A DNA stretch of 59,424 nt from an uncultured Verrucomicrobiota bacterium (GCA_964574605.1 CAZNOK010000002.1:1-59424), one strand, 5' to 3'. Shown: positions 16,832-21,400, counted from the first letter of the stretch. Made by a program: numbers and translations. Notes: a model not told the origin generated them from the sequence alone.

Positions 16832-17497
16832 TTATACCGTTGTTGCTGCCATTTGTCTGGAGCTTCCAGACAATTGTCTGGAACCTTCAGACATTTGCCC
16901 GGAGCTTCCGGGCAATTGCCCGGAACCTCCAGCCAATTGCCTGAAACCGCCGGGCGTTTGCCGGGCGACTCCATCCATTTGCCCGGAATGTCGAGCCGTT
17001 TGCCCAAACCCTCCATCCAATTGCCCGGCACTTCCGGTAGTTTGGCTGAAACCTCCGGTCGTTTGTCCGGAGCCTCCAGCGGTTTGCCCGGAACCTCCGT
17101 TGCCTTCTTCTTTCTTCACTCTTCCCTCTTCCTTCCATCCCTTGCCCTGCTTCCTCTGCGGATGCTTGCACCCCCATTTCGGCAGGTTCTCCTCGTAGGC
17201 GGCCAGATTCATAATCTCTTTGCTCTTGCTGCTGACCCGGCAACCACAGTTCCGACACCACTCGACCCCTTGCGGCGTCACCCGCCGCTTGTCGCACTGC
17301 CGGCAAATGGCGATGCGCTGGACGATAATCTCCGTCGCAACCCGCTTCGCGGTGAACATCGCCTGCGCGAATGTCTTCACTTGCGTGGGAGTTGGGAGAG
17401 GGCGGCGCTCGACTACCGCTGCTTTCGCAGGTGCCGTCGGCTGGGTAGTCACATTCTCGTGATTGTCTTGCGAATTATGCATGGTGTTTTCAGTCAA
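16832..17497 (-). CDS. Zinc-ribbon (Cys-cluster) protein with C-terminal G-x-S-G-Q heptad repeat tail
   Basis: Cys cluster ICRQCDKRRVTPQGVEWCRNCGCRV...WGCKHP, followed by 12 heptads (GGSGQTA GGSGQTT GGFSQTT ... GSSRQMA). An alternative ATG lies at 17482. The ORF overlaps the upstream gene end by 8 nt. Confidence 0.6.
   Translation of the reverse strand: MTENTMHNSQDNHENVTTQPTAPAKAAVVERRPLPTPTQVKTFAQAMFTAKRVATEIIVQRIAICRQCDKRRVTPQGVEWCRNCGCRVSSKSKEIMNLAAYEENLPKWGCKHPQRKQGKGWKEEGRVKKEEGNGGSGQTAGGSGQTTGGFSQTTGSAGQLDGGFGQTARHSGQMDGVARQTPGGFRQLAGGSGQLPGSSGQMSEGSRQLSGSSRQMAATTV
16847..17098 (-). repeat. Tandem repeat, 12 x 21 bp (degenerate), coding
   Basis: The plus strand reads ...tccagcggtttgcccggaacc / tccggtcgtttgtccggagcc / tccggtagtttggctgaaacc / tccatccaattgcccggcact... 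with strict 21-nt periodicity. Confidence 0.85.
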
Positions 17498-18407
17498 TTC
17501 TCAAAAACAAATACCAGTTGCCTTCCAGATGCCGATAGAAGGTGGCGCGGTTCTTTGGCTTCTTATTGTCCAGTGTCGGCGTGATTTCTTTCGTGTCTGG
17601 CGGACTCCGTCGATAAACGTAGCCCTTGGATGTGGCTCCACCTATTGATAATCCGACGACATACACGGTGATAGATATTCCACGTCGTGAACCCTCGATA
17701 TTCGCACTTCTATACCTAATACTTCGTAGGAGCACTTGATATTGCTTGATCCTCTCTTTCGGCACGCCGATTAGATCTAAGTTTTCTGGATACTGTGTGG
17801 GCGCACCCCCAAGCCAACGCCCAAGAGCCGATGAATCGTAAACACCCTGCAATTTACTGCCGGGTTTGGGGCATTCCTGCGGGACCACGGCCTGAAGAAT
17901 GAGCCGATTGAGTTTGATGCGCTCACCTTCGCTTAAGCTTGAAACCTGCGCTAAAAGAGGCTCTGCATCCTTTGGCACGTGGATGTCGCTGAATTTGTCG
18001 TGTAGGCTCGATCCGCTCAGCAGCCGATTAAGCGAATCTATTTGCGTAGGAGCTTCCGGAACAAGAACGCCGCGCGCGGCGATGGCTTTGATAAGTTTTC
18101 CCGGCGTTTTTTCCACGCTGATAAACTCAGGCTGTGAAAACCTCGGTGCAGTGTCATTTTCAAACATGATTCTCAATTGCTCGAGTTCAGGCCGTTTCTG
18201 ATGAAACATGGCGATGAGCGTCTCATCCTTTGGATACTTCCAAGGCGCCAGAAACAAGAGAGGCATAACCAAGCCGGCGAGCAAATAGGAAATAACGCTG
18301 CCGACCAAGCCGAGAACCACCCACATGGCTGTGGATCGCCAGCTCCTGCGGAGCGGTCTGGTTCTACCGGGGAGCGGTGGCGGCATGCGTGGAGAAATGT
18401 TTGACAC
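17490..18407 (-). CDS. Single-pass membrane protein, candidate immunity partner of the upstream toxin-like domain
   Basis: GTG 18407 (alternative ATG 18386) lies 16 nt after the stop of the 1110-aa gene. One TM helix (MWVVLGLVGSVISYLLAGLVMPLLFLA). G+C is markedly lower than the surroundings: my hand count is 26/60 at 17641-17700. Confidence 0.6.
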   Translation of the reverse strand: MSNISPRMPPPLPGRTRPLRRSWRSTAMWVVLGLVGSVISYLLAGLVMPLLFLAPWKYPKDETLIAMFHQKRPELEQLRIMFENDTAPRFSQPEFISVEKTPGKLIKAIAARGVLVPEAPTQIDSLNRLLSGSSLHDKFSDIHVPKDAEPLLAQVSSLSEGERIKLNRLILQAVVPQECPKPGSKLQGVYDSSALGRWLGGAPTQYPENLDLIGVPKERIKQYQVLLRSIRYRSANIEGSRRGISITVYVVGLSIGGATSKGYVYRRSPPDTKEITPTLDNKKPKNRATFYRHLEGNWYLFLRID

Positions 18408-18423
18408 GTTTGTCTCTTAGTAC

Positions 18424-21400
18424 TTATGGCGAAGGAGACCAACTTTCTTGGCAACAAGCTGAACAACTGGATGGGACATACGTCTTCAAAACTGCCGTTT
18501 GTGATGAACTCAAGCTCCCGATGCAGGAACTGACGTCAGACACGGTTACATCCAGAGGTGGAAGGGTTATTCCAAGTTGCTGTAATTTTTGATTTATTCG
18601 CGTCGTCATTTGCTCCGGCGTCATAGTCGTCCAAAGCAGAACAGGGAATAGCTCCAGTAACCCCAAGCCCGCCGCTTGAAGGATTAGATCCCACAACAAC
18701 CACTTGTCTTGAAGCGTTTGGTAAACCGCAAAACCAACATCAATGGCCACTTGGTCTGGCGGATCGTCTTGGTTTGCCCACAAATTCTTCCAAAGGTTCC
18801 ATGGAAATTCATTGAGATGTTGTGCAACTCCAGCACCGAAATGCAGATACCATTTACCAAAACCTGCCATGCGCCCCACAAGCCCGAAATAAATATTTCC
18901 CGGAACGTCCCAGCGATGGCACTCATCGCATAACGTCACGGTCCATGAATCCGTGTCTGGTTCCTGTGTATTTGGATTCAGGAGATGCTTGCAATCGGCT
19001 GTCGGACAATTTCCTTTGGTAGGGCCTGTGCCAGAAGGACCACCTTGAATAGGAACCTTCAAATCCCAACGGTGCCCGGGGTAAACTCGCCAAGCAAAAA
19101 TGCTAGAGGCTATCGCAAAACCGGTCTTGCCATAGTAACGATTCAGAAAACGCATAAGCACCATCTCCGGCGAGGCGGCGTCTAGGTTCATTCGCTCAAC
19201 TAACCAATCAGTGACTTCCGGCCCGCAGAGGTGAGGCGAACTCGATGAGCTACTGGAACTGGAGGAACTGCTTGCGGAACTCGATGAACCGCTACTGGAA
19301 CCTGAAGAGGTGCTGGTTGAACTCGTCGAAGTCGAGGATTCACTGGTCGAACTCGTCGAGGTTGAGGACGTGCTAGTTGAACTTGTCGAAGTCGAGGACT
19401 CACTGGTTGAAGACTCGCTGGTGGAGCTTTCACTGGCGCTCGAATTGGACACCGAAGAACCGCTGCTGGAACTCGACGAACTGGCACTGCTGCTGGAACT
19501 GGATGAACTGGATGACGACGAAGAGGAGGACGAACTGGAACTGCTGGAGGGAATCTCCATGAACCACTTCACGGCAAGGTACACCTCCACGCCTTGGCGC
19601 TGGGAGTTATCGAGTGCGGCGTCGAAACAGGCCAACTCGCAGATATCACCGTTGAGGAACGAAGCGCTGCCGTCGTTGAGAGCGCCCAAGCCAAAAGTGT
19701 CGTTCTCGATGTTCGCATCTTCAGGAAGGTCAGCTTCTGCCACCAAATCGCCATCGAGGTAAAGGCTTAAATGGTTACCGTCTTTGACCAGCGTTACGAC
19801 CGCCATGTCCGCTGTCATCTCGTCGTCGTCAACACAGCCATTGCCGCTGCTGTCTTGGAATCCTTCGGCATAGCCGCTGGCGTTCCGGCGGAACCCAAAC
19901 CCGTCAAGATCGGTCTTGTCACCCAGATGAAATGCGGTCTGGTCCTCGTCGCTGACCCTCACGACAAGGAACAACGTCTTCGAACTGTTGCCGCCAAGTC
20001 CCGACACCGCGCCGGTGAGTAGATTCTCCTCGCCATCAAACCGCACGACGGGCAGGCCATTTTGGATAGCGATCTTGTACATCGGTGCGGCATCTTCATC
20101 GCTGGCGATGATGTGGTGATCGCCGCCACTCTTGTCTTTCCACGCCCACACCGGGTCCTCGTCCGCTGTGACCGGCTCGGTCATGTCAGCGTCTTGAAAG
20201 AGTGTATCCGCGTCGGCGGCGTCAAACCAGAGCTTCAACTCCGGGCCAGTCCACGATGAGGATGATGAGGACGAGGAGCTACTGCTCTGCGACGAACTAC
20301 TGGAGGAGCTTCCGCTGCTGGAGGAATTGGATGAACTGGATGAACTGGATGATTGGCTACCAGAGGAGGCACTCGACGATGAACTACTGATGAAAAATGA
20401 ACTGCTTGATGGTGGTTCGCTGGAAGAACTGCTCGACTGGCTTGACGACGAACTGGATGAGCTTGAACTACTGGAGGACGATCCAGGGTCTTCCTCCAAC
20501 TCCAACGTCTCCGGACTTTCCGCGCAGCCATCGGCGCGCGTGTAGGTGCCGACGGGAGTCGCCCCGGTGTGCTTGTAGCCGAGCCAGATGGTCGAGGCGT
20601 TCTGCTGTGGGGTCTTGCACGAAACCAACAGCCACCACCGGCCGTTGCTGATGTCCAGACCGACTTCGCAGTGTCCAAACAGCGCGCCGTTGATGTAAAG
20701 CCCCGTGTTGCTATAGCCCCACGAACATTCCGGCGACTGCTGTGGTTGATTGATGGTGCCATTCCAAGGCGTCTCGTCAACCACGCCCGTGTCGCAATCC
20801 TCGCACCGTTCCAGCAGCCCGTCATAATAACCCGCGATCCGCCAATAGCCGGATAAATTCTCCGGACACTCGTCCGGAACACCGCTGCTTGCCGAGGAAC
20901 TGGAAGACGGTGGTGGACCGGAAGAACTGGATGAGGGTGGCGCGCTGGACGAACTGCTTGGTGGTATGCTTGAGGAGGATGAGGTCGTGCTGCTGGAACT
21001 CGTGTTTGACGATGAAGAAGAACTTCCGCTGCTGCTACTGCTTGGCCAGTATTGCGGCGTGAACGACAGCCACGAGTGCGAACCGCTCAGGTCGGTAATC
21101 GTCAGGTCGTTGCCGTTCTCGCTCAGGTCGTGGACGGTCGTCCCGCTCCCCTCGTGCATGTCGTAGGCCGCGACTGTGTATTCATCCGCCGGCAAGGTGC
21201 CGGGAGGCGTAAAGTTCTCGGTGTAGCGGGCGATGTCGCTGATGCGGCAGGGGCCAATCCGGATGTTGCCGTGCTCGGTGTTGCTGCCCACCCAGCCGTT
21301 GATGCCGATGTCGCCAAGCTCAAGGTCGAGGTCATCCTGCATGTTGACGGCCTTTACCCGGCCGTCAACGGCAACATAGACGACACTGGCCTCCGGGTCA

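Follow-up and report, generated by a model that had tools for sequence, protein, structure and literature searches.

A polymorphic-toxin-like locus in an uncultured Verrucomicrobiota bacterium with an Ntox44 tip and a co-varying candidate immunity gene

A stretch of 59,424 nucleotides (nt) from an uncultured Verrucomicrobiota bacterium (GCA_964574605.1, CAZNOK010000002.1:1-59424; hereafter the window) carries on its minus strand a gene for a protein of 1110 amino acid residues (aa) and, directly downstream, a gene for a protein of 305 aa. Based on its composition, its domains and its counterparts at related loci, the region is very probably the exchangeable end of a polymorphic toxin locus, where an Ntox44 toxin domain (the tip) and a cognate membrane-anchored partner are swapped together on a scaffold of Laminin-G (LamG) domains and poly-Ser linkers. 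A preliminary description made from the sequence alone had read the C-terminal domain and the next gene as a swapped toxin/immunity cassette. This reading was supported by a step in composition, by the membership of the tip in the Ntox44 family and by five tip types that co-vary with their partner genes. The coordinates of both open reading frames (ORFs) given there were correct (17490-18407 and 18424-21756; Table 1), as was the gap of 16 nt between them.

According to the explanation that we favour, the large protein consists of lectin-like (LamG) and other domains joined by poly-Ser linkers, with the Ntox44-family toxin as the last domain, and this tip would be toxic to competitors. The next gene would produce a partner with a membrane anchor, exposed outside the cytoplasm, that protects the producer from the cognate toxin. 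Tip and partner would be replaced as a unit by homologous recombination in conserved flanks, which would be the conserved LamG domain (LamG3) and its Ser linker on the upstream side, and a zinc-ribbon-like gene with an array of 21-nt units, together with the genes beyond, on the downstream side. Strains of the lineage (the relatives are labelled Verrucomicrobiota) would thus carry different toxin/partner pairs on the same scaffold, and the cassette genes of all types keep an unusually low synonymous G+C content, from which the compositional step arises.

Compositional step and the Ntox44 tip

The G+C content of the whole window was 0.593, and intervals of 500 nt had a mean of 0.593 with a standard deviation (sd) of 0.031. 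Eight consecutive intervals (starts 17251-19001) were found below the mean minus 1.5 sd, with values of 0.49-0.54 and a minimum of 0.488, and this low-G+C run at 17.25-19.25 kb was the longest of its kind in the 59 kb. When segments were compared, G+C contents of 0.497 for the C-terminal domain and 0.515 for the 305-aa gene were obtained, against 0.582 for the remainder of the large ORF and 0.58 for the next downstream gene. That the toxin-like C-terminus and the next gene are low in G+C had been claimed from hand counts in five 60-nt samples; the computed profile and the codon analysis below show the step, and three of the counts (40, 38 and 25) were right, while the other two were each off by one (31 instead of 32, and 27 instead of 26). 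The break had been put at about 19236, at the end of the last poly-Ser linker, in agreement with the junction, which was placed at about 19230-19236.

For each segment, the G+C content at third codon positions (GC3) was compared with the value expected from the amino-acid composition of that segment and from codon usage in 24 further genes of the window. The C-terminal domain had a GC3 of 0.442 against an expected 0.728 (z = -10.4), and the 305-aa gene 0.539 against 0.724 (z = -7.2). By the same measure, z values of +2.8, +0.8 and -0.8 were obtained for the three N-terminal globular domains of the 1110-aa protein, +0.2 for the downstream 206-aa gene, +1.8 for a downstream glycosyltransferase gene (GT9), and -3.6 to +3.9 for length-scaled reference genes. 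The last poly-Ser linker was intermediate (GC3 of 0.59). At codon positions 1 and 2 the cassette (0.50-0.51) and the N-terminal scaffold domains (0.51-0.53) were alike in G+C. As the dip is confined to third positions after the amino-acid correction, the step is synonymous and not due to amino-acid content.

The C-terminal domain matched Ntox44 (PF15607) with 30.2 bits when the whole protein was searched and 33.1 bits with the C-terminal 270 aa, at a gathering cut-off of 24. The match was partial, since the core (aa 946-1013, window positions 18718-18921) covered profile positions 39-103 of 104. The tip of the related locus L001 scored 38.6 bits. The motifs given for the family are DxK, GNxxxG and DxxxD (Zhang et al. 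2012, PMC3482391), and they were invariant between the window and L001 as WDLK, PGNIYFG and D157-x3-D161. By score and motifs, the window tip is assigned to Ntox44 as a distant member, with 25-33% identity to relatives borne on Rhs and extracellular contractile injection system (eCIS) scaffolds. A motif in front of the domain, CGP[DE]VTDW, was common to these relatives and to the N-terminal part of the window tip (CGPEVTDW). Following the core, the tip has a C-terminal extension of ~100 aa. The tail of this extension, CSACCQESWSP, was strictly conserved between the window (18427-18460) and L001 (1770-1807) and comes after a hydrophobic helix (aa 1020-1045); both helix and tail lie outside the Pfam Ntox44 model. 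The AlphaFold2 model of the tip was unusable, with a predicted local distance difference test (pLDDT) score of 41.5 from a 2-sequence alignment, and nothing meaningful was found in the PDB by sequence, whether with the tip, the 305-aa protein, the GT9 protein or the profile of another tip (type B below).

Ntox44 domains elsewhere ride on Rhs, PAAR-like, LXG and eCIS toxin scaffolds. The literature label for the family is that of a predicted RNase, and no immunity family for Ntox44 is listed by Zhang et al. 2012 (PMC3482391). Ntox44 proteins also include horizontally acquired copies in corals (PMC8162421). When genomes were scanned for canonical Ntox44 toxins, four loci were obtained, too few for the frequency of a partner family to be estimated. 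An eCIS_core-type toxin with an Ntox44-like tip was also observed beside two DUF4157-like toxin genes on a contig labelled Methanomicrobiaceae archaeon (L036, 4127-6088), so that the Ntox44-like family reaches archaeal bins.

Five tip and partner types at related loci

Beyond the loci L001 and L008 described below, related loci were collected by one genome scan and one metagenome scan with a LamG3 alignment. The loci came from Verrucomicrobiota metagenome-assembled genomes (MAGs) and freshwater metagenomes; three of them were on MAG contigs labelled Verrucomicrobiota or Verrucomicrobia. LamG3 was found in all related loci with 58-67% identity, and the zinc-ribbon gene showed 61-81% identity across loci. 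The similarity of this gene and of the 206-aa, GT9 and GT8/methyltransferase genes beyond it (Table 1) indicates that the loci are orthologous. L001 was an orthologue of the whole arrangement, consisting of poly-Ser, LamG3, poly-Ser, an Ntox44 tip (51% identity), a 401-aa homologue of the 305-aa protein and a zinc-ribbon homologue. L008, recovered in a search with the N-terminal domains (protein P0008), had LamG3 with 65% identity and the Ser linker, followed by an unrelated C-terminus, a different next gene and then the zinc-ribbon gene. In a blastn comparison of the window with L008, only 20259-19637 (72%, at LamG3) and 17417-17265 (83%) were aligned, and between them just Ser-coding DNA was shared; the non-homologous interval is thus the low-G+C interval. 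Towards loci with another type of toxin, homology of the DNA restarted at 17417, inside the zinc-ribbon gene.

Between the conserved flanks, five unrelated C-terminal types were found. Type A has the Ntox44 tip with the 305-family partner (window, L001), and type B a tip with a GYSWG motif and a partner of a lipoprotein-like family (L008/L019 and L010; L009 without a partner). The unannotated tips of the remaining types are followed by a membrane-anchored family in type C (L011, L022/L023), by a signal-peptide protein in type D (L018, L020) and by a HEAT-repeat protein in type E (L024). Proteins with HEAT repeats have been recognised as a class of immunity proteins (Zhang et al. 2012, PMC3482391). 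Tips were related within a type only, and the same was true of the downstream proteins. The locus therefore combines a shared scaffold bearing five unrelated C-terminal domains with an immediately downstream gene that changes with the toxin type, as is characteristic of polymorphic toxins, and the alternative pairs of C-terminus and downstream gene that the preliminary description had suggested looking for in relatives were present at the orthologous position. A lipase activity of the type-B tip was considered from the GYSWG motif and invariant Ser, Asp and His residues in three sequences, and remains a guess. In two near-identical lake contigs of type C (L022, 625-3300; L023, 2-2551), the toxin gene was cut by a stop inside the C-terminal domain, the rest of which runs on as a separate 260-aa ORF; a pseudogene or a programmed split is possible.

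Scaffold similarity does not track toxin type. The LamG3 domain of the window was closest to those of type-B (66.9%) and type-D (66.2%) loci and farthest from that of the type-A locus L001 (58.3%). Similarly, the LamG3 of L023 (type C) was closest to that of L020 (type D), and that of L024 (type E) to that of L010 (type B). The candidate partners of all five types had N-terminal hydrophobic, signal-like or lipobox-like segments, as read from their sequences, which suggests that the tips act outside the cytoplasm.

The variable tip always joined at the end of a terminal Ser run. The repetitive Ser-coding DNA had been proposed as the recombination substrate, and it may serve as such: the position of the junction and the shuffling of domains at linkers are compatible with the proposal, but all six Ser codons were mixed in the linkers, and the longest words shared with other loci were no longer in Ser-coding DNA (13-23 nt) than in LamG3 (12-27 nt).

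The downstream 305-aa product had been called a membrane protein, and one N-terminal hydrophobic helix was indeed found (aa ~27-52, window 18252-18329). The helix is preceded by six arginines, so that, by the positive-inside rule, the bulk of the protein would lie outside the cytoplasm. Searches gave no Pfam match for the 305-aa protein, and the best NCBIfam match was below threshold (E 0.19). A hidden Markov model (HMM) of 80 family members, from which the window sequence was left out, matched it with E 2.8e-33 in two pieces (aa 36-102 and about 209-305), which indicates a family core split by an insert of ~105 aa. The insert (window 17784-18101, aa ~103-208) is a repeat module of ~95-105 aa without a Pfam match, with the motif ...SLNxLLSGxSLHDKF...ERIKLNRLILQAAFPxECPKP. 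Family members had 0, 1 or 2 copies of it (it is duplicated in the versions of 380-400 aa), and up to several copies were found in unrelated long proteins. The proteins listed with the module were P0023, P0024, P0025, P0027 and P0035.

The exhaustive profile search returned 1918 cluster representatives at E <= 0.001 and 553 at E <= 1e-10, mostly compact proteins of 160-250 aa. An N-terminal hydrophobic segment was present in 76 of the 80 family members and a lipobox-like motif in 22. Among compact members, P0006 and P0007 had no Pfam match, and eight more had no Pfam or NCBIfam match above threshold (DUF4948 was matched below threshold, E 0.016-0.069). On the strength of these profile matches, the 305-aa protein can be placed in a large family that has no entry in Pfam or NCBIfam and whose members are predicted to be exported, often as lipoproteins. 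Close relatives were rare, however large the collection: among 5.8 billion proteins, one was found for the tip and two good ones for the 305-aa protein. The AlphaFold2 model of the 305-aa protein was too poor for use (mean pLDDT of 61 and predicted template modelling score of 0.40 from a 5-sequence alignment), and with Foldseek no PDB structure matched the better model at E <= 0.001.

Members of this family also accompany Ntox44 toxins on unrelated scaffolds. In L042, the compact member P0007 begins inside the 3' end of a Tox-PAAR-like and Ntox44 toxin gene (67 bits), and in the Bacillota locus L059 a member with a clear lipoprotein signal lies between an Ntox44 toxin (71 bits) and a DUF4280 protein. 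In the Planctomycetota locus L041, the gene after the Ntox44-like toxin was a weak full-length match to the 80-member HMM (E 0.0016), and the hhalign comparison was marginal. When the family profile was compared with the proteins encoded after the Ntox44-like toxins of L035 and L040, no significant match was obtained, and the genome scan with the long 305-family alignment returned no locus. Stand-alone immunity genes ('polyimmunity loci') and several immunity families per toxin family are normal for polymorphic toxins (Zhang et al. 2012, PMC3482391), so the 305-family is best taken as one of several cognate families that pair with Ntox44. Given the co-variation and the recurrent pairing, the 305-aa protein is a candidate immunity protein.

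Upstream of two stand-alone genes of the family (L002, 1803-3682; L007, 2-1688), an ORF of 50-51 aa was observed that copies the C-terminus of a nearby gene with 84-86% identity. A gene for a 241-aa protein (L002) or a PIN toxin/antitoxin pair (L007) is inserted between the two copies, and the duplicated C-terminus looks like a target-end duplication by an inserted element.

Scaffold, conserved flanks and neighbouring genes

The 1110-aa protein is composed of four globular parts between Ser-rich linkers (aa 21-236, 294-422, 506-733 and 844-1110). In some related loci the first domain had 32-37% identity to its N-terminal LamG-like domain, which was missing in others, and the Cys-containing middle domain had no counterpart in any related locus compared. 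The N-terminal part of the scaffold is thus a mosaic, in which the number and kind of domains vary among loci and each difference lies at a Ser linker. Neither a signal peptide nor a hydrophobic N-terminal segment was found in the 1110-aa protein, where the Ser run starts right after Met; all relatives with a complete N-terminus (L010, L011, L019, L020 and L024) likewise begin with Met and a Ser run, without a signal peptide.

The tail of the zinc-ribbon gene contains an array of 13 palindromic 21-nt units (for example TTCCGGGCAATTGCCCGGAA), and an array of the same period was found 3' of the cassette in six related loci (L001, 3469-3710; L009, 3191-3244; L011, 13467-13683; L020, 7718-7871; L023, 3422-3651; L024, 8531-8731). 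Its place is just 3' of the variable cassette in every case, in different ORFs and irrespective of the zinc-ribbon part, and as RNA it folds far better than shuffled sequences (z -7.96). The array may be a DNA- or RNA-level element instead of, or besides, a 7-aa protein repeat; speculatively, it could be the downstream joint that matches the Ser linker.

Further downstream, the GT9 gene was kept in all loci that reach far enough (L009, L011, L020 and L023) and the GT8 and methyltransferase gene in the window, L009 and L011, while L010 has a PMT_2 protein-mannosyltransferase-like gene upstream (3780-5402). The co-conservation of poly-Ser proteins with glycosyltransferases suggests that Ser linkers are O-glycosylated. 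A likeness of GT9 to the solved autotransporter heptosyltransferases was considered, and the PDB sequence search with GT9 gave no support for it.

Other scans of the window added little. Promoter and terminator signals were no more frequent than by chance, PADLOC gave no matches, PHROGs gave only weak matches of unknown function, and Rfam and tRNA scans returned nothing. A second low-G+C island was observed at 49250-50300 (with 48649-49638; G+C of 0.49-0.55). Here an ORF of 187 aa (49655-50218, GC3 of 0.49, no Pfam match) directly follows a DDE_3 transposase gene and is therefore probably insertion-sequence cargo; an HNH_2 endonuclease gene lies nearby (47429-48370).

Table 1. Features of the toxin-like locus and its downstream flank (window coordinates)
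Feature	Position	Strand	Basis or remark
1110-aa polymorphic-toxin gene	18424..21756	-	ORF, translation; Pfam Laminin_G_3 and Ntox44; domain/linker map
N-terminal LamG-like domain, aa 21-236	21049..21696	-	Pfam; GC3 0.81
Cys-containing middle domain, aa 294-422	20491..20877	-	Locus comparison, domain map
LamG3 domain, aa 506-733, upstream conserved flank	19558..20241	-	Pfam Laminin_G_3, 49 bits
Last poly-Ser/Thr linker, aa 734-843	19228..19557	-	Variable C-terminus joins at linker end
Variable C-terminal toxin domain, aa 844-1110	18427..19227	-	Pfam PF15607; GC3 z -10.4
305-aa candidate immunity gene	17490..18407	-	ORF; family HMM; co-variation with toxin type; GC3 z -7.2
Cys-rich zinc-ribbon-like gene, downstream conserved flank	16832..17497	-	Likely start ATG at 17482
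Array of 13 palindromic 21-nt units	16828..17098	.	Within tail of zinc-ribbon gene
Conserved downstream block	13140..16805	-	Pfam; identity across loci
206-aa protein	16185-16805	-	49-79% identity across loci
Basic poly-Ser protein	15475-16101	-	Highly basic N-terminus and ~170 aa Ser-rich
GT9 glycosyltransferase (heptosyltransferase-family)	14351-15478	-	Pfam; 75-81% identity across loci
GT8 and methyltransferase	13140-14432	-	Pfam; 62-66% identity across loci

Alternative explanations and relation to known systems

Several observations weigh against an exchangeable toxin/immunity cassette. Neither a signal peptide nor a recognisable trafficking domain, as would be expected of a polymorphic toxin, was found in the window toxin or any relative by Pfam (only Laminin_G_3 and Ntox44 were matched), hydrophobicity and inspection of N-termini. 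Orphan C-terminus/immunity modules, which had been anticipated and are frequent but not obligatory in polymorphic toxin systems, were absent from the rest of the window, where tblastn with all tips and partner proteins matched the main locus only. Types B-E had no Pfam or PDB match, so that only type A fits a named toxin family, and in the type-B locus L009 the toxin gene is followed by the zinc-ribbon gene without another gene in between. All compared loci were diverged (at least 28% at the nucleotide level in the flanks), and neither a recent swap nor an exact breakpoint was seen. An Ntox44 domain was encoded upstream in 1 of the 27 species-representative genome loci encoding the 305-family, the rest of which lie among unrelated genes, and Ntox44 toxins of Saccharopolyspora, and those on Rhs and eCIS scaffolds in L035-L040, were without the family. 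Moreover, an exported partner fits poorly with the RNase label of Ntox44.

As to the composition, a chance fluctuation or a by-product of amino-acid content has a negligible probability: the 60-nt hand counts were noisy, two of the five being off, but the run of eight low intervals, the GC3 deviations, the unchanged codon positions 1 and 2 and the same step in independent loci refute it. The C-terminal domains of all types across related loci had G+C contents of 0.46-0.53 and the partner genes 0.47-0.57, against 0.55-0.59 for LamG3, the sole exception among the C-terminal domains being the split fragment of L023 (0.56). The preliminary description had reasoned that its idea would fail if relatives with the same C-terminus matched their own genome in composition; L001 showed the same dip as the window, with a GC3 of 0.73 for LamG3, 0.57 for the tip and 0.58 for the partner gene. 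Stand-alone genes of the 305-family were low as well (0.517 in L002 and 0.514 in L007, against 0.64 and 0.60 in their flanks). Every type shows the dip, and it is shared by the cassettes of the window and L001 despite their divergence to ~51% identity, so that it does not stem from one recent import. All cassette types have long been low in G+C, and composition leaves two causes, namely a continuous circulation of cassettes through a pool that has a composition of its own, or a different mutation-selection balance (weak codon selection, fast evolution). The latter would mean that the cassette is swappable but its low G+C intrinsic, with weakly expressed, fast-evolving genes drifting to an AT-biased equilibrium or being selected for poor codon adaptation, an explanation to which we give somewhat less than an even chance. 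The purely synonymous nature of the dip, its persistence in all five types, every locus and the stand-alone genes, and the consideration that amelioration should already have erased the signature of one old transfer all favour it. Continuous circulation in a shared pool, however, gives the same picture, so that composition alone cannot separate the two, and the distant Ntox44 toxins of other phyla were not uniformly below their hosts in G+C.

The 305-aa protein might not be an immunity protein at all, being instead an accessory factor of the toxin (for export, maturation or membrane insertion) or a periplasmic housekeeping protein that merely adjoins it. With 305-401 aa the proteins at this locus are larger than typical immunity proteins, their inserted repeat module also occurs in unrelated long proteins, the family is as large as ~1900 cluster representatives, and 26 of its 27 genome loci have no Ntox44 toxin upstream and unrelated genes around. 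Nevertheless we regard this as unlikely, given the perfect co-variation of the family with toxin type among the orthologous loci, its position after Ntox44 toxins on three unrelated scaffolds, and the expectation that an export factor would accompany the scaffold, not the tip; stand-alone immunity genes, moreover, are common in polymorphic toxin systems (PMC3482391). Less probable still is the absence of any toxin system, in which case the proteins would be modular and possibly glycosylated components of the cell surface, with variable C-terminal enzymes for nutrition or adhesion and with unrelated genes downstream. Such proteins would suit the lack of a recognised secretion or delivery apparatus, the likeness of the lectin-like domains and Ser linkers to surface proteins that bind glycans, the missing toxin annotation of four of the five tips, and the conserved glycosyltransferases next door. 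On the other side, the window tip passes the Ntox44 threshold and has the motifs of a family that is found on Rhs, PAAR-like and eCIS toxin scaffolds elsewhere, and a tip-specific exported partner, together with the HEAT-repeat partner of type E, is the pattern of polymorphic toxins.

Among known systems, Rhs/YD-repeat toxins, which have a GC-rich core and an AT-rich tip, were the closest. In Rhs C-terminal displacement, the tip and the immunity gene are replaced together, and the change in G+C has been used to delimit tips (Jackson et al. 2009, PMC2935791). The conserved body, the co-replaced variable tip and downstream immunity gene and the composition shift at the tip are alike, whereas the window protein has no YD/Rhs repeats, encapsulating shell, DPxGL-type motif or PAAR/VgrG link, its junction is a poly-Ser linker, and no displaced orphan tips lie downstream. 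For polymorphic toxins exported by the Sec pathway, N-terminal Laminin-G domains have been proposed to tether the toxin to carbohydrate on the surface of cells (Zhang et al. 2012, PMC3482391). The lectin-like Laminin-G domains N-terminal to the tip are shared with the window protein, but those toxins have signal peptides, while the window protein and its relatives start with a Met-Ser run. Poly-Ser joints are not described there, and the term 'poly-serine' is absent from the text (PMC3482391). Compared with Ntox44 domains on Rhs, PAAR-like, LXG and eCIS scaffolds, the window tip is alike in score and motifs and differs in its divergence, its partial profile match and its C-terminal extension; no immunity family is listed for those domains, whereas the window has a candidate.

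In contact-dependent inhibition, CdiA-CT and CdiI are swapped together behind a conserved body, as is proposed for the toxin/immunity pair of the window; unlike CdiA, the window protein has no two-partner secretion (TPS) domain, haemagglutinin repeats or VENN motif, and no CdiB partner was found by Pfam among the neighbouring genes. Nor were a PAAR or PAAR-like domain or genes of a type VI secretion system (T6SS), such as would accompany PAAR/VgrG effectors, found in the window protein or the neighbours examined; PAAR-like domains occurred only in the unrelated loci L042 and L059. Long Ser-rich tracts in a large protein of extracytoplasmic type, with adjacent glycosyltransferases, including GT8, are known from the serine-rich repeat glycoproteins of Gram-positive bacteria, which we take as a lead only. 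The window likewise has long Ser tracts with glycosyltransferases, including GT8, next door, but the protein has neither a long signal peptide nor a C-terminal LPXTG anchor, and its Ser tracts are linkers between globular domains (accessory Sec was not searched). What is new here is the scaffold and joint of LamG and poly-Ser without a signal peptide, the four unannotated tip/partner pairs and the candidate exported Ntox44 immunity family. It is conceivable, if rather doubtful, that the locus represents an undescribed toxin-delivery architecture of Verrucomicrobiota, with a poly-Ser start in place of a signal peptide, domains and tips shuffled at poly-Ser joints, co-inherited GT9 and GT8 possibly O-glycosylating the linkers and an unrecognised export route, together with the first immunity family for Ntox44.

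Polymorphic toxins shape the competition between related bacteria. Their repertoire is well known in Proteobacteria, Firmicutes and Bacteroidetes; that of Verrucomicrobiota, an abundant phylum of lakes, soils and guts, is poorly known. For this phylum, the locus offers a compact comparative case with five toxin/partner pairs on one scaffold. The four tips and partners without a known family are candidates for new toxic activities, and the locus raises the question of how a protein without a signal peptide is delivered. The 305-family is a candidate for the missing Ntox44 immunity protein, and its exported location calls into question the standard 'RNase' annotation that is carried in many genomes. 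If the 305-family is indeed the immunity to Ntox44, the target of Ntox44 would lie outside the cytoplasm, and Ntox44 would not be the RNase of its annotation.

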